Below the pieces are notes generated by a model, which was not told where the DNA came from, did not search any database, and saw only the letters and a program-made list of their open reading frames with translations. From Clostridiales bacterium (GTDB lineage Bacteria; Bacillota; Clostridia; Christensenellales; DTU072), in the NCBI GenBank assembly GCA_012800525.1, contig JAAZJD010000021.1, positions 15,402-79,401 of the forward strand: a DNA stretch of 64,000 nt, given 5' to 3'. Below, one piece after another: positions 14,426-42,100 of this stretch. How positions within the stretch are numbered: the first letter of the stretch is position 1; the number at the start of each line of letters is the position of its first letter. Both the position numbers and the translations under genes were made by a program.

Positions 14426-15115
14426 TTATGGGTCAGGTTCAGTGACTAAAATTCCAGATAAATCCAGATTATCACAATTCATAAATATGCTTGGTAAAAT
14501 GGCTGGCGTCCCCCTAATTTTTCGCTCAGTATCTATTTCTTCTAATTTTTCACAGGCGGCAAAAGCTAATTCACCAAACTCTATATCATTAATTCCTTTT
14601 GCTGTAATTTTCTTTAAATGTATACAACCACTAAATACACCACCTTCAATTCTTTCAAGGCTTGAATTTAGTATCAACTCCTCAATTATCAAATTGTTCT
14701 TTAAAAGTTGCTTGCTTATATCTCCAGTATATTCAACTCCATTTTGAAACATTAAGGCATTTGCTCCAGTGGGTGGCGCCATGATTTTAATAACATCACC
14801 TAGATATTCTACTTCATTTACAGTTACTGAATATTGTGCTGGAATTTCAAGCTCATCAACAATGTGATCATAGCCAACTGCAGCAAAATCTTCAATACTT
14901 TCCACATCATTAGTTTGCTCTCCAGTTGCATCTAAGCCAACAAAAATTATCCCTTTTAGAGATTCATTCCAATATTCGACATGATCTGGTGGACTAATCT
15001 CAACACTTAAGCTTGCTTGAGATTGTTGTTGCCAATAAGCATAGCTAGCAGAAATTGATAAAGAAACCGCAAATATAAATATTATAATAAAAATAACTGG
15101 TAATATTTTTTTCAT
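14426..15115 (-). CDS. Small exported BspA-type LRR protein with a TasA/SipW-like N-terminal signal (4th gene of the giant operon)
   Basis: N-terminus MKKILPVIFIIIFIFAVSLSISASYAYWQQQSQASLSV. The C-terminal half has LRR_5-like units (IEGGVFSGCIHLKKITAKGINDIEFGELAFAACEKLEEI). Start is either the ATG at 15115 or the GTG at 15127, which overlaps the upstream stop (TAGTG). Confidence 0.7.
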   Translation of the reverse strand: MKKILPVIFIIIFIFAVSLSISASYAYWQQQSQASLSVEISPPDHVEYWNESLKGIIFVGLDATGEQTNDVESIEDFAAVGYDHIVDELEIPAQYSVTVNEVEYLGDVIKIMAPPTGANALMFQNGVEYTGDISKQLLKNNLIIEELILNSSLERIEGGVFSGCIHLKKITAKGINDIEFGELAFAACEKLEEIDTERKIRGTPAILPSIFMNCDNLDLSGILVTEPDP

Positions 15116-15126
15116 AAGGCACACCA

Positions 15127-17280
15127 CTATGGAATATCTTCAAATGTTGCATCAAGAGACAAAACAAAAGTTTCTCCCTTTAAGGTTGGGTCAAAATCCT
15201 CATCAAACACAGCAATGTACATCGCAATATCTAATAAAAATGTAGAGTCCCTACCCATTATTAATTTTTCCCTAAATACAATTGGCTTTTTGTTTGCATC
15301 ACTTGGCAAAACTTCTGCTGAGATTACATGATCTTTATACGTTGTTAAGTCTTTATAGGCATATTCACCTATATACAAAAAAACATTTTCAACATAATCT
15401 CCCCCAGAGTCATTTTTTATATAACTTGCTGCTAACGGATGTGCCGTGGCACTGCCATTTTGGTATAGAACAATGTCACCATCTGCAGGAGTATATGCCG
15501 TAAAAACTCTAAGCCTATTATTTCGAAGAACAACAATATTTTCTAACAATAAATATACTTTTGTTAATAAATACTTGCCTTTATAAGTCTCAAGACTTGT
15601 TATGTCAGTATCATAAGATAAAAAATCTCCATCCATAAATATAATATGATTCCCTGGATTTGAAGCATCAAAATCAATGGACTTATCTATAAATCTAGTT
15701 AAAATTCCATCTCTTTTGTATACAATATGATCAAGATCAACAATAATATCTGATATCGCTGCCCTATCATTATCAACAATTGGATCTCCATTTGCATCAA
15801 CGCCTTCTCCTGGAGAAATTTCATCAGTTTGATTATGTAAAAACAATAACTCATCCCCCACTACAGGAGTATATTTGTTAAAAGAACTATGTAAAAAATG
15901 ACCATTTCTAAAATAACCAATTGTCGAATTTTTTACAAAAAATGTATTCAATAACGACTGTGATACTGGCAAATCTCTTTGAGTTCCATCATTAAAAATA
16001 TAACAAAAGTTCAACTGCTCACTAACAACATTTGTACTTGATTTATCAAAATATTCATGAGTTAACACAGATGTTTCTATACCTGAAGCGGGTGTTACAG
16101 TCTCACCATTATCATATAAAACATTTCTTTGTGTAAGTTGCACATCTTTTTTAATATATATATCATTACCAATTTCTTCAAGATACTCAGAATAAAGTGT
16201 TTGTGGTGCACCAGGGTAATAAATTGCATCCCAGTCGGAAAGGCTAGGAGTATCTCCAACTTTAGTTATCATTAAATCACCGCTGTTTTTATGTTTATAT
16301 ACCCTTTCAGTTGCAAGGGGGGCTGCTGCACCTGGTACCAAAACATTTCTAACTCTATAAGTATCTCCATCAAAACTTATAGGGCTATCTTTTTTTACAA
16401 ACCTAAATGCATGAACGGTTATTCCATTTAAAGTTTGTTGAGTCAGGCAATCGGGGTTATCAAAGTAATCTTTACCGCTTGTGCTATCTCTATAACACAT
16501 AAAATTTTCGGTATATGCCATAAGATTAATACCGCCAGATACATTATGATAGGCCGAAGCGGAAGCTAAATTTACTCTATACTCATTTCCAACTAATGAA
16601 TAACAACTTTTGTGATGAGCGCCGAAATTTATTGTTTTATTCTCTTCACTAAATATTAATTGATCTGTAATTTTATAATGACGATTCCTCCCTAAGCTAT
16701 CAGCAATCAACACCGAATCCTCTCTTAAAAACTGCCCTCTTCTTAAAACTGGTTCGCTTTCTGAAATAAATATACCTTTATCATGCTCCTTAAAACCTAT
16801 ACTTAAGGCCATTTCACCTGTTTTACTGAAATCTCTATTAGTTTTACCACCTACTCCAGCCTCTTTTAGCTTAATACTTTGTTCAATTTTTATAGATTGG
16901 TATGCATTTTCATAAGATTCCAAACCACTCCAATAACTCAAGTCAACTTTGAAATTAACTTGGCCAGCAGCCTTTTCAACATACTCAGGTAATATTCCAT
17001 CTCTTGGAATCACATCATAATTGTAATAATCTAAATCAAAGCCATCTTGAAAATATGATCTTTTTAGTGTAGCTGGATAAAGCTTTCCTTCTTGAGCACT
17101 TTGAGAAACTTCCGATTCAAACTGCAAAATTTCAAAACCAGTAGCGGGGAAAATATGACTCCTTTCAAGCACAACTTGTTGAACAAACCAAGAATATGAA
17201 AGTGCACTAAGAGATAGTGCCACAGTTAAGACTGTTGCAATTATAATTACTACTAATTTTTTCTTGCTTGTGTTTAACAT
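15127..17280 (-). CDS. Exported or membrane-anchored protein of unknown function (717 aa) with a TasA/SipW-like N-terminus (3rd gene of the operon)
   Basis: N-terminus MLNTSKKKLVVIIIATVLTVALSLSALSYSWFVQQVVLERS. SD AGGTGA precedes the ATG. No motif I recognise in the remaining ~680 aa. Confidence 0.7.
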   Translation of the reverse strand: MLNTSKKKLVVIIIATVLTVALSLSALSYSWFVQQVVLERSHIFPATGFEILQFESEVSQSAQEGKLYPATLKRSYFQDGFDLDYYNYDVIPRDGILPEYVEKAAGQVNFKVDLSYWSGLESYENAYQSIKIEQSIKLKEAGVGGKTNRDFSKTGEMALSIGFKEHDKGIFISESEPVLRRGQFLREDSVLIADSLGRNRHYKITDQLIFSEENKTINFGAHHKSCYSLVGNEYRVNLASASAYHNVSGGINLMAYTENFMCYRDSTSGKDYFDNPDCLTQQTLNGITVHAFRFVKKDSPISFDGDTYRVRNVLVPGAAAPLATERVYKHKNSGDLMITKVGDTPSLSDWDAIYYPGAPQTLYSEYLEEIGNDIYIKKDVQLTQRNVLYDNGETVTPASGIETSVLTHEYFDKSSTNVVSEQLNFCYIFNDGTQRDLPVSQSLLNTFFVKNSTIGYFRNGHFLHSSFNKYTPVVGDELLFLHNQTDEISPGEGVDANGDPIVDNDRAAISDIIVDLDHIVYKRDGILTRFIDKSIDFDASNPGNHIIFMDGDFLSYDTDITSLETYKGKYLLTKVYLLLENIVVLRNNRLRVFTAYTPADGDIVLYQNGSATAHPLAASYIKNDSGGDYVENVFLYIGEYAYKDLTTYKDHVISAEVLPSDANKKPIVFREKLIMGRDSTFLLDIAMYIAVFDEDFDPTLKGETFVLSLDATFEDIP

Positions 17281-17332
17281 ATATCACCTAGTTTGTATTT
17301 TTATATTCTACCACAATATCAACCAACTTTCA

Positions 17333-18130
17333 TTACTCTTCAATAACTGTATAGATAAACGCGATATGGAAATTAGTATGCATATATTGAGGATGGCTAT
17401 ACGTAAAATCATTATAATTAAAATATTTGGGAGTATGATCTGGGTTTTTTTGCATAGGTATCCAAGATTCAATGCTTACATTTGGGTCACCCCCATCTGC
17501 AAGATACTCCGTATAATCTTCTAGAGCCCTAACATTATCTTCTTGCCATATGCAATAATGTGACTCTCGCAAGAAAATAATAGACATATTTAGTGTATTG
17601 TCTCCATTTTCTAACGGCAACAAAACTTCTGGAGACCCACTAGGGACAAAAACTCCATTTTCCGATTCTAAAACAAATACTCCTTCACTATTTCTTTTGT
17701 AAACTTTTGTGGGATCAGAAGGAAGAGTAATCCTAATAGTAAAATTCTGATCTACATCTGAAGTCGTTACTAAATATTTATCTTCTTCGCTTAATTCATG
17801 TCTTGTTATTATAAGGTGCGTTAAATCAATTTTTAGTTTTGGTGTACCTGCTGAAGCTGATATATTAATGCTAATTTGAATTTCAGCACTATATGGAGCA
17901 TCAGGTTCAGTTACATAAGCATTCCCCGTTTCTCCTGAATAATCCGTATCAGTAATGCTTTCCCAGGTTGCTGTGGCCTGAGTGTCCATAGCTGACACTA
18001 GTGTAGCATTTTGAGCGGTAGCAATAGCATTATTTGCGTACCAAGACAAGGTAAACGCTGTCGTAGCGATTACAATTATCATCAACACGTAAATTAATGT
18101 TAAAAATTTAAACCTTAATGACTTTTTCAC
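17333..18130 (-). CDS. Exported protein of unknown function (265 aa) with a TasA/SipW-like N-terminus (2nd gene of the operon)
   Basis: GTG start 8 nt after AAGGAG and 24 nt after the giant ORF stop. N-terminus MKKSLRFKFLTLIYVLMIIVIATTAFTLSWYANNAIATAQNATLVSA. Size is similar to TasA-family subunits, but no further similarity is visible by eye. Confidence 0.7.
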   Translation of the reverse strand: MKKSLRFKFLTLIYVLMIIVIATTAFTLSWYANNAIATAQNATLVSAMDTQATATWESITDTDYSGETGNAYVTEPDAPYSAEIQISINISASAGTPKLKIDLTHLIITRHELSEEDKYLVTTSDVDQNFTIRITLPSDPTKVYKRNSEGVFVLESENGVFVPSGSPEVLLPLENGDNTLNMSIIFLRESHYCIWQEDNVRALEDYTEYLADGGDPNVSIESWIPMQKNPDHTPKYFNYNDFTYSHPQYMHTNFHIAFIYTVIEE

Positions 18131-21100: not shown

Positions 21101-24100
21101 AATCTTGTTAACTAGCACTCCTTCAACGAATATTCCATCTGTTCCAACAGAATTGATTTCTGCTTCTAAAGCACTATATTTATTTGTGCCATCAAAAATA
21201 ATGGAAGCTTGGTCTAGTGCTTTTTTACCTTGAACAGGAAGAGTAATATACCAAAGGACATCTCTAGTAATTTTCTTAATTTGAAGTTGTGCGATATCGC
21301 TAAATGAAGTATAATTTCCAGTTGCAGGTATTGTTGCTCTTAAGAAATAAAAGCCTGCATTACGAGCTGTTGTGCTTGTAAATGTATCATAATCATACCT
21401 ATCAGAATTTTCATGTACCCCACTATCATATACTACAACCTCATAAGTTATTACACCGCCTTCACCAGTATGAGTTAAAACTTTCCAATAACCCGTAGTC
21501 GATGGTACTAAATACTCATAAACAACGCTTGGAGTAGTTGAGTCAGGATAATAAATATTTTGGAATATATCATTAGGAGTTTCCTCATCTTGAGTTAAAT
21601 ACAAAAATACATATTCGCCTTTATAATCCATAGTTTTATCATAATATACAAACTCATCTGAAATGTCTCCCTTAGTAATAGTAACTGTTATAAAGCCCGA
21701 AATGCCATTGTAGTTGTCCGTTGCTAAAACAGTTGCTGTAATCGTATATTCACCCACATTCTTAACAGTATTACCACCTGCAAATTGAGAATCTCCTCCA
21801 CTATAAATTACTTGAATTTCTATAGTGGTATCATATTGATAATATATTGCTGTTTTTGTCGAACTAAATGCATTATCAGCACTTGTTGCAACTACATAAT
21901 ATGAATGCTCTTCGCCTTCCCAATAGCTAAATGTATCAGAACCATTAAAGAAAATATTATTAATATCAGCCTTTTCAACAATAATCTCTTTTACGGCATC
22001 ATTTAACGAATAGTTAAGCCTCATTTCAAAACCATCGCCATACACATGTGTAATTGAAGCAGTTAATGTATAAGTTCCTGCATTTTTAATTTGAGCTACT
22101 ACTTCACCACCAGTTCTTATAGTTATAGTTAGTGTCATTTTATTGTCAACGACTCCAGAAATAGCTGTATCTGTTCCAACAACTACAATTTTTGCATTAA
22201 TATTAGCACCTTGTTGAGCACCTATATAAACATACTTTAATACTTCCTCAACTGGAATTGGTAAATTAGCCCATTCAACATTTACTGATTTTGCAATAAT
22301 CTCTAAATCCTTTTCACTTTCAGCAAGTATAATATTATAATTGTTAACATATGGTTCGCCACCAGCATCAGTTGATGCACTGTTTATTGTTGCTTTTCCA
22401 GTATATTTTCCAACATTCCTAAATGCCAATTCATCACTGGTTCCATATTCATAATATTTAACAATTAAGCTTTCTTTTCCTTCATTTTCATCTGTTCTAT
22501 CATCACCAACTAACTCAAAATATGCTGTAGTAACATTTGTTGTTCCTGAATATACAATTTGAGTTTCGCCCCAAGTTACTGAAGCTGATCTTTTTGTTAT
22601 AGATACATTTGTTGTTACATTATCTATTGCGTAGTTTCCTGCATCATCTCCAGACAATGTAAACGTGATATAATTTGCAGCATTTACATTTTTGCTATTG
22701 AAGTAAGCATCAACATACAATGTGTCACCTGTATATATTCCAGCAAATGGCGTTGTAACAAAGCTTGTAATTCTATCATAGAAATCATTTCCGTTATATA
22801 CTTTTGTCCAAGTTGTTAAAGTTGGTTGTAGCTTATGAGCAGTAATTACCCCAGTCGTAACTTGAGATACGGTATAGTTAATGGAAGTCTCTGATGTTAC
22901 CTTGTCTAAGACTGCAAATGAAATTGTCTTATTAGTACCAACATTTTTATTTTGATATGTCGCAATTACATCAAACAATGTAGACTCATTAACATTGCTT
23001 TCATTGGTTACAAAACCTGAAACTGTAAAGGCATCATATTCAGTTGTTGAATCATAAACCTTTGTCCAATTAGAAGGTGAAGATGTTGATGTTACAGTAA
23101 GAGCTTTTTTAGTAATTACTAAATTTGCCTTATTTGCATTAGGACTTGTTGTATTAGGCCATGCGTTATAATTATCTCCACTACCGTGTGCATTTGTATC
23201 AACAGCAATTGAAGCTGTAATTGTATATGTGCCAGCATCTTTTTGTCCATTAAATGCACTTGGAGTTGGATTTTCAGGCGTGATAAAGGTATAAGTTACT
23301 TTAGCCGTATCTGTGCCTAATAGATTTATTGAGGTTGCATTGTTAGTATTTGAGACCGTACTACTTTCTGATACACCAATATATTGTGTATATCCATTAT
23401 ATTCATGTGTTCTCCCAACCATATACATGTTAATATCTGCTTTATCCATAAAGAGATATTGTATTTGCTCACTGCCAGTAAAGTCATAGTTGCTATGAGC
23501 AGCATCATTAACCCTAGCTTCGAATTTATAATATCCAGCAGAGAAGAAATCTCCAATTAAAATATATTGACTTGGATCACTACCACGAGAAATATCAAAA
23601 TCAATATTTCTCGTAGTTTGATCTACGGTTTGTTCATATTGAGCCATTTCATAATATGCATTCAGTTGATTTTTCTGACTAGCTCCGTTATATGTATAGT
23701 CTATTGGATCTCCATTTATATCATCAAACCCTACCCAAACTATTGTTGCTGTATAAGCTTTAATAGTTAAAATTGCTGTATATTCTTGAGTTATGTAGTT
23801 TTTGTTTTCAAGAGTTGCTTTAATATAGTATGTTCCTTTATTTCTAGCGCCATTAAATGCGACATTGTACACATCAGGTGTATTGGAATACATATATGTT
23901 ATGGCAGCGCTGTCTATTGTTGCAGCATTTTTGTATGGTCTAATGTCTAAAGAAGTTACTTTAGATGTTCCTAAAGAAGTTTCAGTACTTGTTGTTACTA
24001 CATTTAAGAAGTGTGTTGCACCATCGAAAGTTAATGAATCATTACCAGTTAAGCTATGCAAGTAAAATACTGTAGACTCATCAATATTGTTGTACATTGT

Positions 24101-27100
24101 AGCCTTGTTAATTGTCAATGTTGCTTGCAATGTAAGTTTTGTGTAGTTAGGATTGTATCCAGTTTTATCTGGGTCATTTAGTGTTGCTGTTATAACATAT
24201 TCTCCAGCTGATTTTGCCCTATTTTTATCTAAGTCACCAGTATATGTAATAGCCAAATCTTGTGGTGAAATTGTGTAATACAATGTAACCACAACACCAT
24301 GTTGAGTTGTATTTACAGGTTCAGCACTTTCCGCATTTACTAGCTCTACTATTTTTACTAGCCCATCATATGTATATGTGCCTTGTCCATCAAGTGATAG
24401 TCCAAGTATAGAAGAAACTGTTATAGTTAAAATTGCTTCTCCTACCCATGTGGTTTTACCAGAAGTTACATTATAGTTCAAATAACCATCTGTAATGTCA
24501 GTACTATCAATAACAGCTCTGATGTAATATGTACCAGCAGCAACCCCGCCTGTGAAAGCTACCCAACCACCAATATATGCAAAGCCTGCTTCATCTTGAG
24601 TAAAGGTATAAGTCACAGTAGCTGTATCGGAGCCTAAAAGTTGATACTCTGTTTGATTTGTTGAATTTGCAACTAAAGAAGATGTAGATGCACTTAAATA
24701 ATGTGTTTCAGTGTCATATGTCACGCTGTTATTTAACATATATAAAGCGATATCAGCTTTACTCATAGTTAGCTCTTTTTGGATTGCAATGAATATGTAG
24801 TTTGATGCAGCATCATTATTGAATGCAAACCTGTATCGCCCAGCATTTTTGAATATAAGAACGCTAACATAAGTGCCATCGTTATTTTGAGAATATGAAA
24901 TTTGTGGTGTTACAGTAACAACATAACCTCCATAAAGCACATCATCACCTATAGGAGTATAATATGACGTCAAAGATGATAATTGGTTTCCTCCATTATA
25001 TGTATAGCTTGCTTCAACATTAGGTTCAACCTCATATCCACTTAAAACTAGAGTAACTTGTTTAGGATTAATCGTTAAACTTGATGTATACACTTGCGAA
25101 ATATAGTTAGAGTTAGTTAGAGTTGCTTCAATATAATATGTACCTTTATTTTTTACACCATTGAAATCCATATTATAAAGTCCAGCAGTTGTGGAATATT
25201 TATAAGTAACGGTCGCTATATCCGTATGAACTTCTCCAACAGGAGAAATATTTAAACTTGTAACTTTTGAACTACCTAAACTGCTAGCACTTGAAGATGT
25301 AACAACATTGAGATACTGCAAATAGCTGTTGTAATCTGTTACTACAGCACCAAAATAGAATGTGCTAGATGTCCCATCTACATTATACATAGTAGCCTTA
25401 TTTATCACTAAATCTGCTGTAAGCGATAAAGTATTATAGTTTGCGGCATCTGCTCCTGTAGCATTCACGGTTGCTGAAACAACATAGTTACCAGCACTAA
25501 TAGCCCCTTTATCAGATGTTGTAGCTGAGTCCGTTGGATTAATTGAATATGAAACTGATACTGAAATTCCATGTTGTGTTTGATTAGCTGTAATTTCAAT
25601 CTCATGTAAATTACCATTGTATGTAACCGTTTTATCTTCTAAATCAATGTTCGTTATAGTTGCCTTATTAATTGTTAATGTAGCTTGCTTGTTCCATGGG
25701 ATGTAGTTAATCGCTAAACTTACACTTAAAGATATTTCTGCCTTAATATAATAAATTCCTGCATTTTTCCCACCATTAAATTCTAGCCAAGAACCACCAT
25801 AACTAAAGCCTTGTTCGTCTACAGTATATTTATAATCAATAGTTCCAGTATCACTGCCTAATAAATCTATTGACATAGGTCTAGTTGTATAAGGATCTGT
25901 ACATGGAAGTGTTGTAGATGTTCCAGCACTAATATAGTGGGTCGTGTTATCAAACGTTACACTACTATTTATAAAGGTGTAATCAATGCTTGCTTTTGCC
26001 ATTGTCTTTGTTCTTTGAATATCTCCTGCATCGAAAGTATAGTTTGCATTTGGTGGAGCTATGATAAATTGATAGTAACCAGCATTTTTAAATTCAGTAG
26101 CAGCGGACCACTCAAGCTCGGGTGACACTTTATAATTTATAGTTACAGATAATTGAATATTTGCACCACCATCGCCTGCGGCTTGCAAATATGTTGCAGA
26201 AATTTGGCTAGCTTGATTATATGCATTATATGTATACACGATATCATTTAAATCTCCATCAACAATACCTGACCAAGTTACTGTTGTCTTAAATGGCTTA
26301 ATTTCTAGTATTGCAGTTAACTCTAAGTCATTATAATTGCTGTTTCCTAACACCGCCTTAATTGAATAAGTACCGGCATTTTTTGCACCAGTAAAAGTAA
26401 TGTTGCTAACGGTGTATGTAATAGTTGCCGTATCTGCAGTAGCTAGAAGATTTGTGCTCGGATGAATGTTAATTGAAGTAACTTGAGAAGTAGATAAACT
26501 GCTTGCAGTACTTGTGGTGACAACATTTAAGAAATATGTATATCCATCATAAGTTTTTGCATCAGTGTTGTTTTTGCTGTGTAAATAATAATCACCAAGA
26601 CTTTGGTCATCATTGACATTATACATTGTAGCTTTTGCAATACCTAGAGTTGCATCTAAAACCAAATTGTTGTAGTTTGCGCCAGCTGTTATAGTAGCTG
26701 TAACTGTATAACTTCCAGCAGACATTGCCCTATTTTTTGTAAGTGCACTATAATCTAGAGCACTATCAAGAGGATTCATATTATATGAAACATTAATTGA
26801 TTCACCATATTGTGTTTCATTTGGATTATTAGTGTTTGTTATTTCAATTGAATGTATGGTTTTATCATAAACAGGTGTTGTATCATTTAAGAAAGTAATA
26901 TTTGCTATATCTGCTTTGCTAATAGTTAATATACCTTGTTTCTTCCAAAGATTATAGTTTTTGCTTTCTTCCCTAATTGCAATTATATTGTATATTCCTG
27001 CATTTTTGTTACCCATAAACTGATCTGCTCTATCGCCAGTTAGTCCCGATGAATATGGCTCTACTGTATCTCCAATAATATAACTACCAGTTGCGGATAA

Positions 27101-30100
27101 TACATAATATTGTATGGTCCAAGTATCACTTCCTAACCCTGTATGCTCGGTTGTATTTGTTGAAGAAATATATGCACCACTATAGTCAGCTATTGTATTT
27201 GCTGATAAATAATATGTTGTGTTTGTATAACCAACTGACCTATTACCAAATAATAAACTTACATTTGCTTTTAGCATTCTTAATGCTTTAACATCATTTG
27301 TCAATGTATAGTTGGGATTTGGTGTTGCAACATTGAAATTATAATAACCTGCATCTTTAAACTCTGATGCTGAGAGATACGTTCCCCCCAAAGTCTCTGA
27401 ATATGTATATGAAATTGTTAAATTAGTAGTTCCACCATCTGCAGCCAGTGCATCAAAACTAGCAGTTACACTACTACTTTGAGAGAATCCATTATAAGTA
27501 TATGTGCTTCCTAAACCTGTCCAATTTACTGCTCTTTCTAGCTTATTGATAGTTAATATAGCATTTAATTCATAATCATTGTAGTTTGAATTTTGAATTA
27601 TTGCCTTAATATTATAACTTCCTGCATCAGTTACTCCAGCAAAAGCAGTATATGTGCTACCAGTCGTTAATTTATATGTATAAGTTGCAATACCTGTTTC
27701 AGTAGGAGTCAAAGATGTGTTGTTTGCTGGAACTATATTATAGCTAGTTACTTGACTATTTGATAGGCCTGAAATATTTTGAGCTTGGATATTTAAATAA
27801 TGCTTTGTTGCACTATAATCTGTTGTAGCATCTAACAAATAAAATGTACTGGAGTTTCCGGTTATGTTATACATAGTGGCTTTAGTTATTTTCAATGTCC
27901 CTTCAATGTAAGTCTCATTGTAGTTAATATCAGTGCCACCCAAATTAAATGTTGCCCTAATTGTATATGTTCCTACATTTTTTGCTCCATTTGCTGGTAC
28001 ACCTACACCAACATCTGGTGGTGTCGTTGTATAATTTACTGTTGTTACCTCATTAAATTGAGTGGTATTTTTTGTAACAGTAACTAATTGATATGCACCA
28101 TTATAAGTATATGTACCTGTGCCTTGTAAAGTAATGCCCGTGATATCTACTTTATTTATAACAACTGTCGCATTTTTATTGTCCGAAACATAGTTTGAAC
28201 CACCACTTATTGCAGCAAAAATTTGATATGATCCAGCATTTTTAATTGTTGTTGAAGTAAATGGGGAGGCATTTGCTGGATATCCACTTCCAGAGTTATA
28301 TTTATATGTATATGTAACTGTTCCCGTATCTGAACCTAGTAAAGCTACAGATGTATTTAAAGTATAGCTTACTTCGTCTACTGTGTTTATACCAATTGCA
28401 TGATATGCAGCATCATAATATTGTATATAACCTACAAAGTATAAGCTTAAATCACTAATGTTTTTCTTATTTATAGTTAACACAGCAGTTAGCACTAAAT
28501 CATTATAGTTTTGATTAGTTAATGTCGCTTGTAAATAATAAGTGTTCGCATCCTTAACACCGTTAAAGTTAGTATCATAAACGCCAGCAGTTGTTGAATA
28601 TTTATATGAAATATTAGCAACATCACCAGAATAAGGTGGGTTTAATACTACACCTGTAGGTTTAATGTCTAAAGTTACTTTCTTAGAGGAACCAATGGTA
28701 GTAGATTCAACATTTAAGTACATTAGATTTGATGAATATGTTTCAGTTTGATTTGCATAAGTAATAGTGCTACCATCAGCTTTGTTTACCATATTAGCTT
28801 TATTAATTGTTAAAGTTCTAGAAACTACAAAATCTTTATAATTTGTATTTACTGTTGCAGTAGTTACAATTGTATAAATACCAGCATTTGTGGCGCTATT
28901 TCCAGATACTCCATTTATTGTCTGAGTAACACTAATTGCATCTCCTAAACCAGTATTTCCTGGTGGACTAGGAGTATATCCAATACTGTGTGCACTTCCA
29001 TTGTATGTCACTGTTTTATTTGCCTCTACAGTAATTTCAGTAATATCTTTTTGTAGGATCTTTAAGTTTGCTTCAGATTGATATGCATTATAGTTAGCGC
29101 TTGCAGCAATCTCACCTTTTACAATGTAGTAAGAAACATCTCCGCCGCTAATATGTACAGTCGTTGCACTATTTCCAGATGTAAATGATGCTTCGCCATA
29201 TCCTTTAATCTCATAGTTGATGGTAGCTGAATCACCAAATTGAGTGTTAAATGTATAACTTGTTCCAACCGATTTAATTTCAGTTCCATTTACAACTAAT
29301 GTGATAGGATGTGCATTTTTATCATATGTATACTCTTCACCTTTTAGTGAAATATTGGTGACACTTGCTTTGTTGATTGTCCAATCAAAGTATACGTTTA
29401 AAGAACCTACTATTGTATAGTCAGTATTTGAAACTGAAGCAATTTCCGCCCTATATTCGCCAGCATTTTTTGCACTAACAGCATATACTCTACTATTTGG
29501 AGCAGGTGAACTACCAGTAGTTATATATGTTATATTAACTACATCGCCACTAACAACATTTGTAAAACTAGCAGATATATTTCTCGTAGTATTATTATAG
29601 GTATAACTTGCTAAGCCATTCCAGCTAATTACTAAAACACGAGGTTTAATTTCCCACTCAAAATCTCTACCTGAACTTGAAAGCACATAGTTGCCTGATT
29701 TAGATCCAGCTATACTTAAAGCTCTAGATAAATATTGATTTGCACTTGTTGCTTTACTATATAAATATCTTCCGGTAGCTAATGTGCCACTATTATCAAA
29801 CACGATATATACATCAGAAGCATCACCAGTTAACACACCTACTAATGTACCCTCTACAGTTTTTTGGGTTTTGTCATAATTATAGCTTGAGGTTTGTGAC
29901 GACCAATCGATTGTTAATGTTATAGGTGTAATTTCAAAAGTTTGTTGTAGCGTGCCTACTAATTTATAGTTAGTATTATCTAATGATAAAATTCTTACTA
30001 TGTACGTATCTACATTTACACCTGTTGCATAATAACTAGTTGAATTATTTAATGAAACCGTGCTATCTAATTGTTTTTTAACAAACGCACCTTGATAGTT

Positions 30101-33100
30101 AGTTTGCGCTTTGACAGTATCAGTTCCAATAACATCATCTGTAGATACTGTAAATCCATGCTCGCTTGCATCATACATAGCCTTGTTTGTCGCATCCAAT
30201 GACACTTTTACCCAATCAAATTCAATAGAAGCTTGATTGATTTGTAAAATAGCACTTAAAGGTAATACATTGTAGTTATCTCCAGCATCAACTGTTGCTT
30301 CAACAGTATAATATGAAACAGCGTTGTTATAAATATGAACATTTTTAGCACTATTGCCAGTTTGTTTCAAGCCACCATATGGAGTAATTTCATATGTTAC
30401 TGATATTGGATCACCATACTGAGTTACTGTTTCTACAACAGCAATAGAGTGATTATTTCCATCGTATGTTACTGTTTTGTTAGATAGAGTAACATTTGTA
30501 ATATCTGCGACTCTTATTTCCCAATCAAATGTTAAATTAGAAAGTGTCCCCGTTAAAGTATAGTTGGGATTAGTTACGCTTAAAACTTTTGCTCTATACA
30601 CACCAGCAATGGTAGCTGCATTATATAATTCTCTACTATTTTCTATATTTCCTGTATTGTCATATGTAAATGTCAACACATCACCACTTTCCAAATTGCT
30701 AATTTGAGCTACAACAGATTTTTGTGTCTTATCATAGAAATAAATAGTTTGCCCTACCCATGTAAATTCAGCAACTTTTGCTTTGATTTCCCAATTGGTA
30801 TTCATAACTGTTGCACTTGCTAACTTATAGTTTGCACTATCAGCACCCGTTAAAGAAACAATTCTTGAAGTATATAAGCCTGCATTTGTTGCTCTACTCT
30901 TAGACATTCTTCCGCTCAAAACATTTCCCGAATTATCAAAAGTTATTGAAACTGTATCAGGAGTTCCGCTCTTTGTGACAATATTGCTTAAAGTTCCTTC
31001 TACTTTTTCTTCAGTTTTTGAATATGTAAATTGAGTTTGAGCATCCCAAGTAAATGTAAGCTCTCTTCTACTAATAGTTAAAGATTTTAATGTGTTGCTT
31101 AATGGTAAAGCGTAGTTATCGTTATCGTCTACAGAAAGAATTGAAATTGTATACCCTGAGTCAAGGGCTAAATTAGATTTAAATGTAATCGCAGTAGCAT
31201 TTCCAAATAATGTTCCTGCACTTAAATTGGATTGAATGTTTGTACTATTTAATGAATAATTTAAACTTACTTGATCTGCACCGATTATTCCAGTAACTGT
31301 TAAAACCTTGCCATAATAATCTTTATCATATGAGACACTGATTGCAGCATCTGCTGTAAGCTGAGTAGAGCCAGTTACATAGTCTTCAAAATAATTTTGC
31401 CAAGCAAAGCTTAGTGTTTTTGCTATTATTGACCAATCTTGTGTTAAAGCTCCCGATATAACATAGTTAGCTGCGTCGTCTCCTGTAAGAGTGCTTGAAA
31501 TTCCTGCTGTATAATTACCTTTATTTGTTGCAGTATTAGTATAGTTTGTATCCCAACTTATAGCTACATCATCTCCAGTGATTGTATTATTGATTGTAGG
31601 TAAAGCTGGCCCTTGGGAAGCACCGTTATATGTAAAGGTGGTTGTGCTCCATTGTAGAGTAACTTCTCTTTGTAAAATATCCCAATCTTGTGTAAATCCA
31701 GTTGGATTTGATGTTAAATCTAAATGATAATTACTATTTCCAGAAATCTGATCTATTGTAACAGAATAATGACCTGCTAACGTAGCTGTTATTCTATATT
31801 TTCCACTGACAAATTCAAGTAGCATGGAAGGACTTCCGAGCGTTGGGTTTATAGTAACAACATCACCAGTAATTATATTTACAAATGTAACTATTACACC
31901 ATGTTTATTTGTATCATAAATGTCTTCATAGCCACTAGCTGTTGTTGTAGGAGCAAATGAAATAGTTAATCCTCTTGTATTAATTTTGAAACCTTTGGAT
32001 TGATGTGCACTATTTATAGTGTAATTATTTGCAGCAGTAGTTCCATTTAATGATATTAGTGATGCGCTAGCAGTATAACTATCAGCATTGACCTTTGAAT
32101 TATTTAGATAGGCTATTCCAACATCGTTATAATCGACAGCGTATATTTTACCATCACCAGTTGTTAACCCACCACTTGCAAGTGTTCCATATATTGTTTT
32201 TGTTGTTTTATCATATGTTGTTTCAAAATTAGAATCAAAACCATGACCTGCAGTTGTATGCCACGTTAAATCTACTGTCTTAGGAGTAATCTCGAAACTT
32301 GAAGATGTTGAAGTTAGTGTATAATTTGCATTGTCAGTTGAAGTATCAATAGCTAATCCATTAATAGCTATTGTTCTAATCCCAACATTTCTTCCGAAAA
32401 AGTCATATGAGCCTTCTCCTGAAGCATCACCTACAACGGGAGTACTTAATACATTAGCATTGACAAATTCACCTGTTAAAACACCTGTCAACTTGATGGT
32501 GTCACCAGTGATAATATTTGATATAGTCAAAATCTTTCCAATATTGTTTGCTGATGAATATATTGCCTTGCTACTTGCATCTAAATTGTTTGATGTCCAT
32601 GCTAACACTAATTGTCTTTGTGTAATATTCCAGTTAACTGAATAAGTTGTTGACCCAAGAGTATAGTTAGAAGCAGCACTGCCACCCAATGAATCTATCT
32701 CAACGGAATAATTACCTACATCGGCTGCTGATGAAACACTGCTTCCAGTATATGTAGCTGTTACATCATTAGAATCTGAGGTATAAACACCAATTAAGTT
32801 TGCTTTTACATGATGAGTAGTCCCATCATATGTAAATGTTTGCGGAGTCGACCATGTTGCAGTTATTGCTTTAGGGGTTATTCCAAGATCAGTGATATCT
32901 GAAGTCGTAAGAATTGTTTTGACATCATCAACAGCTCCCTCAATGTCATCTGGATTCCTGTAATCATTAAAGTATGTGAAATCGCCAAGATGTACAATAT
33001 AATTTGCTGCAGACGTTCCAGTCAAGATAAATTCGATTTCATCAGCGGATACCACATCTTTTGAGTTATATGCTGCAGAATAATTAACAGTATCTCCTGT

Positions 33101-36100
33101 AATTTTTAATCCATCATACCAAAGTGCACTTGCAGGAGCAACACTGCCTGTAGGTGCCGTGAATCCTTGATATGTTGTAGTTGTATCATATTCCTTTTTG
33201 CCATTCCCGTATGTATCTAATATTATTATTTTGGGTAGAATTAAAACAGTTAATGCTATACTGCTGACCGTTCCAAATTCATTATCACAGTCTGAACCAC
33301 CACTTCCTCCAGACGTATCATAAAAATGAATTTCATAATCCCCCACATCTTTAACATTATTTGGTTGATTTCTGTATTGTGTCAATGTATATGTTCCTAA
33401 ACTTGTATATCCGGAAGATGGGTCAAGTCTTTTTGTTACATCTACTAAAACGCTTGCAGGTGGAAGACTTGAATAAGGCTCATGCCTATAGTATTTTCCT
33501 AAATAAGATTCTGTATAATCAAGAACTGAGGAACCTGGATTAAATCCTTGCACTTTTTTATTGATAGTGAAAGTTAAAACATACTTAGTCTTAATTTCGC
33601 CAAAAGTTGAACTATTTTGAGTCAAATCTGTCAATGCAATATCATGAACAAATGTAGTCGGAGTGATTTGAGGATATTTTAGCTTTATAGGTCCTACCCC
33701 TGAATTATCATCAAAATAGGTGGCATTAGAATATCCATCATCAAGAGCATCAAAGACATAGTTAGCAGCATTAGAGCCAGATATATTCAAAGTTAACCAA
33801 TATTTTCCTGCATGCATAGGACCACTATTTGGCAAATCTACATATTTGGGATTTGTAGGCAATTGATTAGGATCTGGCCATTGATGATTTATATGTACAT
33901 TGCTAATATTAGTTGCCTCTAAACCACAAGTACACAATCCATAATAAGTTTCTGTTGAAATCGTAACATTTTGAACTAAAGTATCATCTACGCTTGTAAC
34001 ATTGAAATTATGATATGAAGTCGAATCGACAAAAGTAACAGGAGTTCCCCATGTATGTGCTTTAACTGCAGGTGGTAGCCCTGCTTTCGTTATAACATAT
34101 TCCCATTCTAGCGAAGAACCACTGATTACATATGGATAGATCTTGAAACCTAATTTATTTGATGCACCTGAAGCCCAAACATAATTTGTTCCTAAAGTTA
34201 AACCAATTGTCGCAGTATATTCGCCTGCATTTGTTGGAGAAAGAACTGGAAGACCTCCAGCATTTTCATAAGTAACACTTTCTGGGAGCGTTTCGCCAGT
34301 AACTATATTGTTAATTACTACTTTTATATCCCCAGCTTGCCCTGCAGTATATCCGGTGGTTTTATATCTCACATTTCCATCAACATAATCAAACCAAGAA
34401 ATTGTTATCTCTCTTGGATTTATTTTCCATGATCTAGCTTGTTGAGCTGATACAGATAATTCATAATTATTGGCACTTGCACCTGTTATTTGAGTAATTG
34501 AAGCTTGATAAGCGGTGCTGCTTGCATTTGTATAAGTATTGTTTTGATATAAAAAGCCAATTGTGTCTCCAGCTACTTTGTTTGTTGGGTCAGCATACAC
34601 ATATCTTTCAATACCAGAGTAAGTAGTTTCAAAGTTCGAATCAAATGATGGTGCTCCAGCTTTTGTATCACCATACCAAGTTACATTAAGTGACAATGGT
34701 ACAATGTCTAATGTTGACTGCGCTGGCAATGTTGCTTTATAGTTATCTTTTGCTGCACCGCCTATAGCAGTAATACTTAATGTATATCCACCCGATAAAA
34801 CATTTTTAGCATAGAATGTGTAAGTAGTATTTGATATTAGAGTTGTGCCTGACACAAGTGTAGTGCAAGTAAGTCCTGAGCTTGCAGTATAAGTTAAAGT
34901 TAATTCATCATATACACTGCTACTATTAGCTTGAATATTAAACACTGTTAAAATAATTCCATGATTTGAGCCATCATAAGTGACTTGCTGTGTCGATGTA
35001 TAAGTAAAGCCTAAGCCTAATGTTTTCTTAACTATAGCCCAAGATTTTGTTTTAGTGCTTAAAGGATTAATGTGATAGTTAGAATTGTTTAGACTAGTAG
35101 CCTTAATTGCATAGTATGATGGAGTTGAACCTTCGCTTGCATTAATTGAAGCAAAATAGTGTTTACTAATGCTACTTAAATTAGGTGTTGTGCCAGAACC
35201 ACTAGCATAATTTGAAGTAGAGCTAACTAATCCATCGTTTGTATAATTAACACCTACACTTTCTCCAGTAATTAAGCCAGTTACAGATAATTCAACACCA
35301 ATCAGTTTTGCCGTATATGTATATGAGAAATTATCAGGTAACAGTGTTTCATTTGGGTCATCACCCCAAACTAAATCCAAAGCTTTTGTAGCAATTTGCC
35401 AACTAAGTTGTGAGCCAGTAAATGTATAATTATTTGCATCAGCACCAGTAAGTGTAGTAGAAACCTTTGCTATATATGTACCAGCATTTGTTGCTTTATG
35501 AACAGAATCTGCAGTAAAGACAAAATCAACAGTATCCCCTGCAATTTTACCATTTACTTGTGGAAGAGAAACGGCTTGTTCTAACCCATTATACACATAA
35601 TTATATGTGCCCCAAGTTGCAGTGACAGTCTTAGGATTTATCTTAAATGAACCATCTGTTTTAGATAGAGTATAGTTGCAATCACTGCCTGTTGTGGAAT
35701 TTCCATTGCTGTCTGTCAATGAATTAATTGTTATAGTATATGATTTAACAGTGCCTCCATCTATATAAACAGTTTTACCTTTGAAATGATATGTGGTATT
35801 TTGGGCAAGACTCTCACCACTATTAAATCCTTTAGTAGTAAATGGACCCTCAAAATCTACATCAAGTGATATGGTATCACTATTTGCAATTCCTGTAATT
35901 GCATAAGATATTCCTTGTTCTTGTCCATCGTATGTATAAGTTGGGGGAGAGCTTGGAGATATAGTTAAAGTTACAGTAGACTTATTAATCTTCCATGTCA
36001 AAGCTGCAGGATTAGATGCATTAGATACTACTACATAGTTAGCACTAACACCTGTAGATATTGTTTTTGGAATGGTTTCATATGTTCCTGCATTTTTTTG

Positions 36101-39100
36101 TATATTCAAATCTTTATCTGCTTGATATTCAAAACTTATTGGTGAATCTGAAGTATATACTTTTTTATCAGTACCATTTGCTGCACCAATATCATAGCCA
36201 GGAGTTACTTTCCTAGATGTGTTATTATATATGAATTGAGAGTGATCGGCTAAATATGCAGTATTTGACCCCCCTGGCACAAAATCGCCGACATACCAAC
36301 CAGCAATATAGATCTCTTTAGCTGAAATTGTAAATGATTTAACTTTTACATTTGAAGAATCTAATTCATAGTTATGTCCATCTTTTCCACTAATCAAATC
36401 GAGTACGGTTATAGTATAACTAGATGCATTTTTAGCTTGATATGGATAGCTCGTATTATTTGCCACGTTAACTATTGTGGTGTTACCAACAGTGAAATTA
36501 CCAAGCAATGAAAGATTTAATGTTACTTCATCCAAACCACCAGGATTTGAAGTATTTTGATATATCGAATCTGTTGATGTCTTCAAACTGATACCTTGAT
36601 TTGCTGTGTTATAAATAAACGAAGTGTTACCTTCCCAAGTAAAGACAATCTTTTTCTTTCCAATAGTCCATTCAAAATCATCAACATCTAATGTATAATT
36701 TGTAGAACCTGCAGCACTTACAAGAGTAACATCTTTCATTTTGTATGTGCCGTATGCTTTTGCTTCAAATTTTGCAGAAAATGTTGCTGTTGAAGTAGCA
36801 GCAACCCTGAATGTTTGTGGATCTCCTGGAGCTGAAGTTTGCGTAATTGAACAATTTGCAACTGCAGTTTCAACTATGGTATCACTACTATTAGAAATTA
36901 CTGTGGCTACATCATACGAAACTGTATCAGTACCAACTAAACCTGATACCGTCAAAGTTGGTCCATACAAAGTATTTGCATATACATACTGCAAAGACCC
37001 TGTCCAATTACCAATTAAAGCTTTTGGTGTTATCTTCCATGGCTGAGTTAAATTAGCGACACCTGTAAGTGTGTAATTAGCGTTACCTACACCTGTGAGT
37101 GTTCTTGAATAAGTTCCTGATACATTTGCATTGGTTTGCGAAGTATTTCCTGTATATGTAAAGGTAAAGGTGTCCCCAGCAATTGCATTAGAAACAACAG
37201 CAACTATGTTATGAGCGGTAGAGTCATATACGACTTCTGGCATTGTTAAATATGACCAACTACCTGCACTGTTTTCACCTACCCATGATATTGTTGCAGT
37301 TCTTTGATTAATTTTCCATGTAACACTTTGATTTACAGAATAATTTGTTGATGGAGAGGTTGAAGCCATATTAACAGTAACATTGTATGTGTTAGCATTG
37401 ACCGCTTGTTGTGTACCACTATATGCAAAACTTACTGTATCTCCTGAATAAACACCAGGGTTACTTGTGTTTGCAGTAACATTAGTAATTTCAGGTAAAG
37501 CTTTCACACCTTTTGTCGTTCCATCATATGTAAATTGATTATGGCTCGTGTTATATAATACATCATCTAGTGTATAAATTAAGATAGTTATTCCTTTTGG
37601 TACGATTTTCCAAGATTTTGAATTTGTTAAAATATTTAAAGCATAATTTTGATGATTAATTTGGAAGTTTGCAGTATATTGACCTGTAATTACATTTATA
37701 GCGGTGATACTACCAGTAATTTCATCATTAACACTATTAAATGAATGACTTCCACCTGGAGCATTACTTGTTGCTGTTAGAGTAACAGCATCATAATTTG
37801 GTGATGCACCTCTCTTTACAATTCCAGTTATTTCTAACCCAATTCCTTGATTACCTTTCGAATAAGTATATTCATAACTTCCTGGGGCGCCTACTCTCAT
37901 TCCAGTCGTAAATACTTCTGAAAATGCTAGTGTTAGTGTCTTTTTATTGATGACAAAAGAGGCTTGTTGAGTAAGATCAATACTATAGTTATCATTGCTC
38001 ATAGAAACTAAAGAAACTGTATAAGTTGCTGCATCTATTTCTCTAACACCTTGATAAATAAAGCTAGTGACACTTCCTGATGTAACAATTGAAACATTAT
38101 TATGAGTAGTACCATCTGAAACCTTTATCACTATGCCAAGCAAATTATTAGCACAATCACTTGCAATTAAATTTGAAAAAGTAACATCAATTCCATGAGC
38201 AGTTCCATCGTATGTAAATGTTGAACTACCACTGAAACTAACAGTAATTTGACGCTTTGTGATTTCCCATTGCTTTGATAATTTTGCATAAAGTGTAGTC
38301 TCACTTGATAGTGGTAATCTATAGTTTAAATCTGTATTGTTATTTAGACCTGTAACTTTTGAGAGATACTTTCCAACATTTGTAGCAGAAGTTGCATAGG
38401 TATATATTACTCCATCAATATTAGTGGTACCAGTCGTTTCATATACTAAACTAACAGTGTCTCCAGATACTATATTAGATATCGTTCCATTCACACTCTT
38501 TTGAGTTCCATCATAAACAAATGACACAGTAGATGGCCATGTAATATCAACAACTCTTTGATCTATTTGCCAATCTTTATATAATCCACTCGTTGGTAGC
38601 TTGTAGTTAGTATTTGATCCTGCAGTAAGCCCTACTATGAGCGAACGATACAAGCCATAGTTTATAGCAGAAGATTTAAGCTTTCTTCCTTCTTGAAGTT
38701 CTCCAGTTTCAGAATATACAAATGAAGCAGTATCAGGACTAATCAATCCACCAGCAACAGCTGTTACAGACTTAGTTGTTTTGTCATATGTATAAGTTGT
38801 AGTACTTTGCCAATCAATTGTTAACTCTTTCTTTTCAATATCAAAACTTTGAGACTTAGTTGTAGGTAAACTATAATTTCCTCCAGTTGCACTAGAATTG
38901 CCATTTGTATCAATTACATGAGAAATTGCCGCACTATAATTTCCATAATTAACACCCGTCAAACCAATGTCAAAACTTGTTCCTCCACTTGTATATACAT
39001 TTGTAGCTGAACCGAGATCATTAGTAAAAGTATTTGTGCCTGAATTATAAACAGTGTAAATCTTTATTGGTGTACCACCAGTGACACCTATGTACACATA

Positions 39101-42100
39101 TATTTGCTCACTTGAAACAATATTTCCAACTTGCACACGCACTCCTTGATATGTAGTGTCATATTCATAACTATAAGCAGCTAATTTTGTGTGATAGTAT
39201 TCAAAGAAAGTTAAAGTTAATGCCCTTCTTTGCATTGTAAAAGTTTGTGAATATGTAGTATCTATCTCATAGTTACTATTTGGTGCATGAGTTGCAATTA
39301 GTGAGCTTGTATTTATAGTGAATGTATAAGCACCAGCATCTTTTACTAATACACCATAAGTAACACCTGAACTTAATCCATGGGTTGGAGTTACCCCACC
39401 TGTGCTTATTCCACCTGTTACATCAAAATACTCATTTGAGCTATATGTTAATCTAACGCCTGCTGTAACATTGACATTTAACTTGACTGTATCACCCGCA
39501 AACACACCAACAACTTGAAGTGTCCCTATTTGTGAATAACTTCCAGAATAAGTTAAACTTGAAGCAGTGAATGTAAATGATATTTTCTTTGCAACAATTT
39601 TCCAATCTTTGGTTAGAGTCACACCTGTTAGCGTATAGTTTCCTGCATCTAATCCAGTGAGAGTGCTTGAAATTCTTGCATCATAATTACCTTTATTTGT
39701 TTGCAAATGAGAATAAGTTGTGCCACCATCAACACCATCATTCCAACTTAAAATTACATCATCAGGATTAATTTTATTGGAAATTGTTGGTAAAAGTGGT
39801 CCTTGTTGACCAGCATTATACTCAAAAGTTGTTGTGCCCCAAGATAATTGAATTGTTAATTGTGAAATAGTAAAGCTCGAATTTATTGGAGGATTATTTA
39901 ATTTATAATTTGTATCATTAACGCCTGTCACTGAAACACTATAACTTCCTGCATTTTTACTATAAAAGTTAAATGTTCCGTTTGATATCAATGTGTTAGA
40001 ATCAAAGCCTTTTGACGTTACATTCGTTGTTGTTGTTAATTTTACTTGCTCTGAGCCAATAATTCCGCTAACTGTAGCTGTGACACCTTGATTTTGCCCA
40101 TTATATGTAAATGAAGAACTGCCAGAAAATGACACTGTAATTGTTTGTTGACTTATCAACCAATTTAATGTAGCTCCTGCTGAAATTACATAATTTGCAT
40201 ATAAATCTGAACTCGATGATATCTCAGCTTGGGTTGTATATGAACCTGCATTAGTTTGAGTGTTGGTATCCCCTTGATATGAAAAAGTAGGAGTTGATGA
40301 TAAATCTGATGTATAAAATCTTCCGTCTGTCGCTAAAGTTGCACCATCTAAATATCCTGGAACAACTGTTCTTGCAGTACCGTTATATGTAAATGATGAA
40401 TTCGTATATTGAGTATTACTTCCACCAATGGTGTATGAGTTTACATACCAGTTTTGAATAGTTATATTCTTCTTTGCGATAGTAAATGCACCTGTTAATG
40501 AAGGTGATGCACTTATCGAATAGTTTGCACCACTAGTTCCAGAAGGATTAGCTCCAATTTGAACAGAATACGCTCCAGCATTTGTTGCAACAAAACTATG
40601 TGATCCATTAGCTAGCTTTCTTTGTCCTGTAGTGATTATACCTACACCAATTAAGGTAACTTGACCTGCTATTGTCAACATAAATTCAACTAAATTAGCA
40701 TCACTACCCAAAATACCAGAAACGGTTAAAGTTAGACCTTGATTTTGTGTGTTATATGTAAACGAACTTGCACCAGACCATGTTAAAGAAATAACTTTTT
40801 TAGTTATGGCAAAAATCTTTTGTACTGTTCCACTTAAAGTGTAGTTATCTGTAAAAGCAGCACCTAAACTAACATTTGCTTGATAGGAACCAGCATTTTT
40901 ACCTTGAACATTTGCAAGTAACGAAGCCTGTGACGAAGCAAGGGTGAAGTTTGGATCTGCACCACCAACAGTAGAGTTTGATGAGGTCACAGTAACTGGA
41001 TTTGAGCTAGTCATTGCTAAAAGCAATGTAACAGCTTCAGTTGTAACAAAATTTGAAGCCGATAACTGTACCCCTTGAAGAGCTGCATTATATTCAAAAG
41101 AATCAGCACCACTCCAACTAATAGTAATTATTCTCTTTGTTATTTTCCAATTTTTAGAAGTATTTGATGCGCCAGTCAAAGTATAGTTACTATTATCAAT
41201 TGATGCAACAGAGCTAGAATAACTTCCAGCATCAGTTTTATTTCTATCCCCACCATATGTAACGGTAATGGAGTCTGAGCCAACTTTATTGCTAATTTCA
41301 GCATAAATGTTATGCTGAGCAGCATCATATACCCTACTTAAAGTTCCAGAATCATCGGTCCAACTACTTGTAGGAGCGTCGCCAACCCAATTAATGGTTA
41401 TTATTCTTGGAGAAATTTGCCATGATAAAGTTAGCTTAGGATCAGAAGTAGATATAGTATAATTTGAGCTTGGTGTAGTATTTGCTAAGCTGACCTTTGT
41501 GCTATATGCTCCAGCATTAATTTGAGTATTTAAATTTGTTCCTGTGTTATACAAGAAAGAAATTGAATTTTTATCACTATTATAAACTTTTTTATCACCT
41601 GCAGTTGCTGCTCCAATGTTGTATCCTGCTGTTACCTTCTTAGTTGTTCCATCATAGACAAAGGCATTTGAAGTATATGCTGTATTTCCACCATCTGGAT
41701 TAAAGTCCCCAACATACCAATCAATGATTTCTATGAGTTTTTTATTGATAACAAAAGCAAAAGTTCTTGAAGCTACTGCTGCGGGAAGTTCATAGTTTGA
41801 TGCAGAAGTTCCCGTAATTGTAGTAGAAACAACTGTTGAATAATTTCCAGCATCAATTGCTTTTAAATTATAATTTGAGCTAGAATTAACGGCTACACCA
41901 TTTAACTCATTTGTGGTTAATGTACCACCTGTTGTATTAGTTGATAAAATTATATTATCACCTGCAACTATACCATTAACTTTAACAACGACACCTTGCT
42001 CTGTTTGAGCAATATACGTAAATGGACTACTTGATGTAAGTGTAAAGGTTATTTGTTTCTTTCCTATTGTCCATGACTTTGAAAGTGTTTGACCAGTTAA

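Follow-up and report, generated by a model that had tools for sequence, protein, structure and literature searches.

The window analysed here is a stretch of 64,000 nucleotides of contig JAAZJD010000021.1 from the Clostridiales bacterium assembly GCA_012800525.1 (positions 15,402 to 79,401 of the forward strand). It is AT-rich (GC ~0.30–0.37), and its minus strand carries a giant open reading frame (ORF) at 18155–51994, which, according to the ORF list and its translation, encodes a protein of 11,279 aa. The giant protein is composed of an N-terminal hydrophobic segment, an N-terminal region of ~1,300 aa, ~80 small modules (aa 1296–10763) and a C-terminal region of ~515 aa. Within the modular part, an initial annotation made from the sequence alone had flagged an interval with five copies of a higher-order repeat, which the giant ORF encloses entirely. 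We find that this interval contains four tandem copies of an ordered set of four module types, preceded by a shorter copy that lacks one of the types, and that the array probably originated by an old tandem block duplication.

The array was recognized by a hexapeptide marker, which is found at aa 7732 (as KANMVN) and at aa 8038, 8454, 8866 and 9297 (as KATMYN) of the giant ORF. The corresponding Lys codons lie at window positions 28801, 27883, 26635, 25399 and 24106, with spacings of 918, 1248, 1236 and 1293 nt, exactly as first annotated. A pattern scan of the whole 11,279-aa protein gave no further KA.M.N. Modules were delimited with a hidden Markov model (HMM) iterated from one module, which converged on 80 modules of 82–144 aa each, and were compared all-against-all by Smith-Waterman with normalised scores. 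This module-level scoring was used instead of ungapped identity autocorrelation of the raw protein, which produced only weak peaks (412, 436 and 846 aa), the register being blurred by indels. Modules 54–72 (window 23135–29074) are most similar to modules lying ±4, 8 or 12 places away. Normalised scores among modules 57–72 average 0.30 at offset 4, 0.275 at offset 8 and 0.21 at offset 12, versus 0.08–0.12 at every other offset. When the order of modules was shuffled, none of the 20,000 permutations reached the observed value of 0.277 (null 0.136 ± 0.015; z = 9). Unsupervised clustering of the modules by the unweighted pair group method with arithmetic mean recovers the string (A B D)(A B C D)×4, in agreement with the original suggestion that the same module subtypes recur in the same order between markers. 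A blastp self-search of aa 7601–9700 returned shifted alignments (+429 and −490 aa) that extend over ~2,100 aa with 33% identity (E = 0).

Each of the four module types has a characteristic motif: 'I.NI...TVTYNG..H' in type A, 'KATMYN...YLNVV..S.VTS' in type B, 'VTW.G..YTYNG..Q' in type C and 'KA.I' in type D. The ABCD unit is ~415 aa or 1.25 kb in size, and full cassettes span 412–435 aa. All cassettes are encoded on the minus strand. Cassette 0 (28175–29074; aa 7641–7940, 300 aa) consists of A0 (28823–29074), B0 (28490–28822, with the KANMVN variant) and D0 (28175–28489). Cassette 1 (26939–28174; aa 7941–8352, 412 aa) consists of A1 (27905–28174), B1 (27566–27904), C1 (27293–27565) and D1 (26939–27292). 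In cassette 2 (25688–26938; aa 8353–8769, 417 aa), the modules are A2 (26657–26938), B2 (26318–26656), C2 (26018–26317) and D2 (25688–26017), and in cassette 3 (24440–25687; aa 8770–9185, 416 aa), A3 (25421–25687), B3 (25088–25420), C3 (24782–25087) and D3 (24440–24781). The last one, cassette 4 (23135–24439; aa 9186–9620, 435 aa), includes A4 (24128–24439), B4 (23780–24127), C4 (23465–23779) and D4 (23135–23464). The array is thus present where it had been annotated (23110–29060), its measured span being 23135–29074. The first copy had been described as lacking one module, and the missing one is the C-type module of cassette 0; in the alignment, the B0–D0 junction falls cleanly on a module boundary.

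The cassettes are strongly diverged from each other. Pairs of cassettes share 33–45% identity in protein, slightly less than the 'about half' estimated at first, 48–53% in DNA and 39–45% at third codon positions. The longest exact direct DNA repeat in 23135–29074 is 17 nt, which equals the maximum of 50 codon-shuffled controls. Tandem Repeats Finder (TRF) found no tandem array, and a search for long direct DNA repeats returned only motif-sized families, such as those encoding KNAGTY and YTYNG. Sensitive blastn detected only patches of 26–140 nt with 70–92% identity, spaced by ~1.3 kb or multiples of it. This residual similarity between cassettes resides mostly inside the B-type modules (window 23760–28606). 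Self dot-plots, which had been proposed as a check, would be blank with exact words of 15 nt or 10 aa, and the period appears only under protein similarity scoring. A family of DNA motifs (F.G.KNAG.YYIKA on the coding strand) is found at intervals of 615–624 nt, that is, in every second module, in window 25124–27643. An older two-module ancestry (A/C and B/D), at which this spacing hints, was considered and has no firm support: the similarity between B and D is slightly raised (0.137 vs ~0.09), that between A and C is not.

To find out how widespread the array is, one cassette was searched against 5.8 billion proteins. Just two weak partial matches were returned, and thus the giant protein and its close relatives are absent from this collection. 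Relatives were found by scanning genome contigs (GTDB species representatives) and metagenome contigs with patterns derived from the cassette alignment. Among the GTDB species representatives there are 14 loci, all giant ORFs, which come from metagenome-assembled genomes labelled Clostridia, Clostridiales, Christensenellaceae, Bacillota/Firmicutes or Candidatus Coproplasma. The metagenome scan contributed four more loci and no genome closer to the window than locus L001. Two pairs of loci (L002 and L015, L007 and L018) are the same sequences. According to type-specific HMMs, ABD followed by four ABCD units is present in seven distinct genomes, namely, those of the window, L001, L002/L015, L003, L004, L016 and L017. 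The C-less first unit is found in all seven, and the comparison of cassette numbers among genomes that had been suggested at the outset gave an identical module count throughout. The ORFs of L001–L004 were segmented with the iterated module HMM; their modules pair one to one, in order, with modules 41–79 of the window, and their module string is identical to that of the window (A...AABD ABCD ABCD ABCD ABCD). Type-specific motifs are retained across 20–30 sequences per type.

The conservation of the architecture coexists with considerable sequence divergence. L003, L004 and L016 have ~81–82% DNA identity. Among the pairs tested with megablast, L001 gave no alignment with L002, nor did L017 with L003 or L004. 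Orthologous modules are 53–79% identical between the window and L001 and 38–58% identical between the window and L002. The termini of the giant protein are conserved as well, the C-terminal 515 aa being 70% identical in L001 and 28% identical in L002 and L004. Synonymous divergence (dS) is at or near saturation, with values of 0.8–2.0 relative to L001 and saturation relative to L002. The ratio of nonsynonymous to synonymous divergence (dN/dS) between the window and L001 is 0.12–0.42 for each of 20 modules, and each module is under purifying selection. There has been no gain or loss of modules since the divergence of these genomes.

Neighbour-joining trees were built for each module type from five genomes. 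Modules never group by genome in these trees, and monophyletic cassette positions were obtained for A (6/6), C (3/4), D (3/5) and B (1/5). Clades specific to cassette position, which the initial annotation had expected, are therefore seen for types A, C and D, with B showing only one of the five. Since the module string is shared, the modules cluster by position and dS is near saturation, the duplication must predate the divergence of the seven genomes. The copies themselves are ancient, as evidenced by their DNA identity of 48–53%, by the lack of tandem or long DNA repeats and by the presence of a separate ortholog for every cassette position in genomes with saturated dS relative to the window. 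These results bear out two propositions made for this interval: that the cassettes originated by ancient duplication and not by recent slippage, and that the protein lengthened by duplication of four-module blocks, the latter being reflected in the fixed order of types and the position-wise grouping in the trees. Type B is the only one in which paralogs within the window are more similar (0.47 among B2–B4) than orthologs from the L002 lineage (0.36–0.41). The residual similarity of the B modules may have been left by gene conversion in the past, or this type may be more strongly constrained than the others. Cassette 0 is an outlier for all three of its modules and represents the most divergent copy. 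It may have lost its C module or may predate the insertion of C.

Besides the more distant loci of the contig scans, distant relatives were collected from 1.84 billion protein representatives, which were searched exhaustively with a profile and gave 863 matches at E ≤ 1e-3. The distant relatives (L005–L012 among the loci; P0005, P0010, P0043 and others among the proteins) carry one or two A-B-(C)-D-like units and no four-fold array, as exemplified by the strings 'aBcD' in P0043, 'A.cDaBcD' in P0005 and 'AAABdAbB' in L005. It follows from the presence of one or two units in these sequences that the ABCD unit is older than the clade of seven genomes and that the four-copy amplification is specific to this clade. 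A restriction of the C type to the clade was considered but dropped once 'aBcD'-like units had been seen in P0005, P0010 and P0043.

Block duplications are also found elsewhere in the giant gene. Modules 11–15 match modules 15–19 (offset 4) as well as modules 28–32 (offset 17), modules 18–21 match 31–34 (offset 13), modules 5–6 match 21–22 (offset 16), and a further block duplication has an offset of 25 modules. Modules 47–49 match modules 51–53 at an offset of 4 (mean score 0.36). The latter belong to a neighbouring super-repeat of the order X-Y-A-Z-X-Y-A (modules 47–53; window 29075–31090, minus strand), which adjoins the cassettes upstream and in which modules 49 and 53 are, according to the type-A HMM, of the same A type as in the cassettes. 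At the boundary between this super-repeat and the cassette array, two A-type modules (53 and 54) stand side by side. A second stretch with a four-module period is formed by modules 11–19, with the distant copy of modules 11–15 in modules 28–32 (window 40172–43012 and 36005–37621, respectively). The whole giant gene grew by repeated multi-module duplications, and the flagged array is its most regular part.

The motifs Y-[DN]-G, NAG.Y and NY are common to all modules. A module-by-module Pfam scan at E<0.01 assigned 9 of the 80 modules to YDG, 4 to MBG_3, 4 to MBG_2 and 3 to MBG. The cassette modules fall below the Pfam gathering thresholds (e.g. A3 with 17.7 bits vs 25) and, on sequence grounds, are best regarded as divergent relatives of MBG/YDG domains. 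Directly after the cassette array there are two classical YDG domains (Pfam PF18657, 36.2 bits vs the cut-off of 25; aa 9621–9793, window 22616–23134, minus strand), which were missed by the generic module HMM and represent the sole above-threshold Pfam match in that part of the protein. When cassette 3 was modelled with AlphaFold2 from the alignment of the five cassettes, modules A and B had a predicted local distance difference test (pLDDT) score of ~90 and consisted mostly of beta strands. Foldseek searches with this model retrieved tandem Ig-like/cadherin-like arrays, the Bacillus anthracis S-layer protein Sap and the adhesin SraP (E ~1e-5, low TM-scores). With all 80 modules as the alignment, a model of module A3 alone reached a pLDDT of 96.8. 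A sequence search of the PDB with the cassette and both termini gave no match to a solved structure.

The N-terminus of the giant protein contains a K/R-rich stretch followed by ~20 hydrophobic residues, and this hydrophobic segment looks like a signal peptide or a membrane anchor. The listed start of the ORF is a TTG codon at 51994; an in-frame Met-Met is located 19 codons downstream, where the hydrophobic segment (MMLFITLFFVVFLAIF...) begins (window 51850–51994), and translation may start at a codon other than the one listed. Directly downstream of the giant gene, three further ORFs are encoded on the minus strand (17333–18130, 15127–17280 and 14426–15127). The only family matches of these ORFs (14426–18130) are to a BspA-type leucine-rich repeat, which scores 36 bits against a Pfam cut-off of 27.7, and, weakly, to a SipW-type signal. 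The three ORFs are syntenic with the giant gene in relatives, with 72, 51 and 68% identity in L001 and weaker similarity in L002, L004 and L017, and they may be functional partners of the giant protein. Other neighbouring genes are ordinary bacterial housekeeping genes, encoding IMP dehydrogenase, a Ham1-family protein, a GH3 glycosidase and a lipoate-protein ligase.

We consider it likely, with a probability of roughly 0.78, that the flagged interval arose long ago by tandem duplication of a block of modules within the stalk of a giant extracellular protein. In this scenario, a unit of four already different MBG/YDG-like modules would have been duplicated in tandem, yielding four ABCD copies after a C-less ABD unit, and the distribution of units among relatives places the four-fold amplification at the base of the seven-genome clade. 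The copies have since diverged until their DNA similarity is nearly gone, and each of the 19 modules now evolves as its own ortholog. The modules might form a rod of small beta-rich domains, holding the C-terminal region away from an N-terminal membrane anchor, as the stalks of fibrillar adhesins do. The giant protein would accordingly resemble a surface filament of the fibrillar-adhesin type, with the array as its putative stalk or spacer. The duplication would simply have added length, ~15 nm per cassette if each domain spans ~4 nm. Placing domains of different types next to each other may also be of benefit, low identity between neighbouring domains being thought to limit misfolding between them (PMC4660218, PMC8201768). 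The copy number would remain static because there is no longer any identical DNA long enough for homologous recombination. The related idea, put forward in the initial annotation, that divergence protects the array from recombinational collapse is plausible and compatible with both the lack of identical DNA runs longer than 17 nt and the equal module count in seven genomes, but plain ageing of the copies or selection against misfolding of neighbours fits equally well.

Several observations weigh against the stalk and block-duplication scenario. The closest cassette pairs vary by type, being 1–4 and 1–3 for A, 3–4 for B, 1–2 for C and 2–3 for D, and the B-type modules form no position clades across the two lineages. 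Since the branching order of cassettes differs between types, the array does not record a simple succession of duplications of the whole unit. The incongruence may stem from partial gene conversion long ago, from duplications of less than a full unit or from a signal that has been lost. In the structural model of cassette 3, modules C and D are poorly modelled, with pLDDT below 50, and for the model of the single A module no neighbour at E<1 was retrieved from the PDB. Pfam, NCBIfam and PDB sequence searches detected no adhesive, enzymatic or wall-anchoring domain in the N- and C-terminal regions, the only match being one Flg_new repeat in the N-terminal region, and thus the role of the protein as a surface stalk is only inferred. 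In addition, neither LPXTG, SLH nor any other known wall anchor was found in the giant protein.

Three other explanations were considered. The array could be a functional super-repeat or molecular ruler, in which the four-module period is kept to match a periodic partner, as the super-repeats of titin and nebulin match muscle filaments. A wall or S-layer lattice, other copies of the protein within a fibre or the products of the three downstream genes are candidates for such a partner. A ruler would be in keeping with the number and order of modules, fixed in seven genomes despite saturated synonymous divergence, with the motifs that each type retains in all copies and species, with the constant cassette length of 412–435 aa and with the synteny of the three genes. 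However, nothing in the analysis points to a periodic partner, block offsets of 13, 16, 17 and 25 modules elsewhere in the same gene follow no regular period, and one or two units suffice in distant relatives. Moreover, the stasis is sufficiently explained by purifying selection on each fold in combination with a lack of substrates for recombination. A ruler thus appears unlikely. Somewhat less likely still is the specific proposal that the four-module period is functional and not a historical leftover, representing the ~15-nm repeat of a bacterial ruler or scaffold aligned with a periodic partner, even though this would explain the fixed count.

An independent origin of each quartet, with the ABCD order having arisen repeatedly by insertions of single modules through shuffling or convergence of types, could account for the incongruent relationships of cassettes between the four types and for the missing C in cassette 0. 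Yet the same ordered quartet occurs four times running, with the permutation z-score of 9, contiguous diagonals exist (e.g. a 7-module run at offset 8 and 3-module runs at offset 4), and the shifted alignments are continuous over ~2,100 aa. Independent assembly of one order four times is far less parsimonious than block duplication, and we regard it as very improbable. Finally, recent slippage in a variable-length ('periscope-like') array has a precedent in other bacteria, where the same domain superfamily forms near-identical arrays (P0004, P0013); otherwise, only the existence of the repeat speaks for slippage or for an artefact of assembly. Both are refuted by the data. The copies are only 48–53% identical in DNA, the longest exact repeat is no longer than in the codon-shuffled null, the TRF output is blank, and dN/dS is <1 throughout. 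An assembly artefact is ruled out because there are no DNA repeats and the same architecture is present in seven independently assembled genomes.

Growth by old block duplication, the reading which we favour, has precedents among well-studied proteins. Domain repeats are known from autocorrelation of domain similarity to grow several domains at a time, the unit being seven modules long in nebulin and typically four domains long in the case of Fn3 (Bjorklund, Ekman and Elofsson 2006, PMC1553488). The giant protein displays the same signatures, namely, an autocorrelation peak at a unit of several domains, higher similarity between domains at the same position than between neighbours and position-specific orthologs kept between species. 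The 7-module super-repeats of nebulin and the 7- and 11-domain super-repeats of the titin A-band are the classic conserved cases (PMC7754682, PMC10665226). In contrast to titin and nebulin, the array described here is bacterial and intronless, is built of MBG/YDG-like modules and not of Ig, Fn3 or nebulin modules, and includes four full units and one partial unit. The modules resemble Pfam MBG/YDG families (PF17883, PF18676, PF18887, PF18657) in the Y-[DN]-G, NAG.Y and NY...L.I.K motifs, with up to 20 of the 80 modules matching at E<0.01, but the B type carries an N-terminal elaboration (KATMYN...YLNVV) which lies outside those models.

Among bacterial surface proteins, the giant protein is similar to fibrillar adhesins (Monzon et al. 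2021, PMC8286594) in being very long, in consisting mostly of small domains in tandem and in having an anchor-like terminal segment and non-repeat ends. Its ~80 modules exceed the 73 stalk domains that were the maximum in that survey. Unlike in fibrillar adhesins, no recognized adhesive domain or wall anchor was found, and the modules are mostly below the Pfam thresholds. With a tandem stalk and no detected adhesive domain, membership in the fibrillar adhesins is not established. Periscope proteins (Whelan et al. 2021, PMC8201768) are likewise rod-like tandem arrays in bacterial surface proteins, in which repeat number sets the length. However, the repeats of periscope proteins are near-identical in DNA and vary in number between strains, whereas here they are 48–53% identical and invariant in seven genomes, so that the array displays neither the high DNA identity nor the variation of repeat number between relatives by which periscope proteins are recognized. 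Within the same domain superfamily, two proteins from other bacteria, P0004 (5306 aa) and P0013 (2777 aa), contain ~35 near-identical single modules and a near-identical two-module unit repeated many times, respectively. Both arrays expanded recently, in contrast to the cassettes, whose copies have diverged.

The array is not a new mechanism but a clean and well-controlled bacterial case of growth by multi-domain block duplication, which has been documented mostly in eukaryotic proteins. The orthologs from seven genomes date the duplication and show that each copy was afterwards conserved as a domain in its own right and that the number of copies no longer changed. The array further points to a family of giant proteins (5,000–11,000 aa) with little annotation in uncultured Clostridia from digesters and guts. 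If its four-module period were functional, the giant protein would be a bacterial counterpart of the titin and nebulin rulers.

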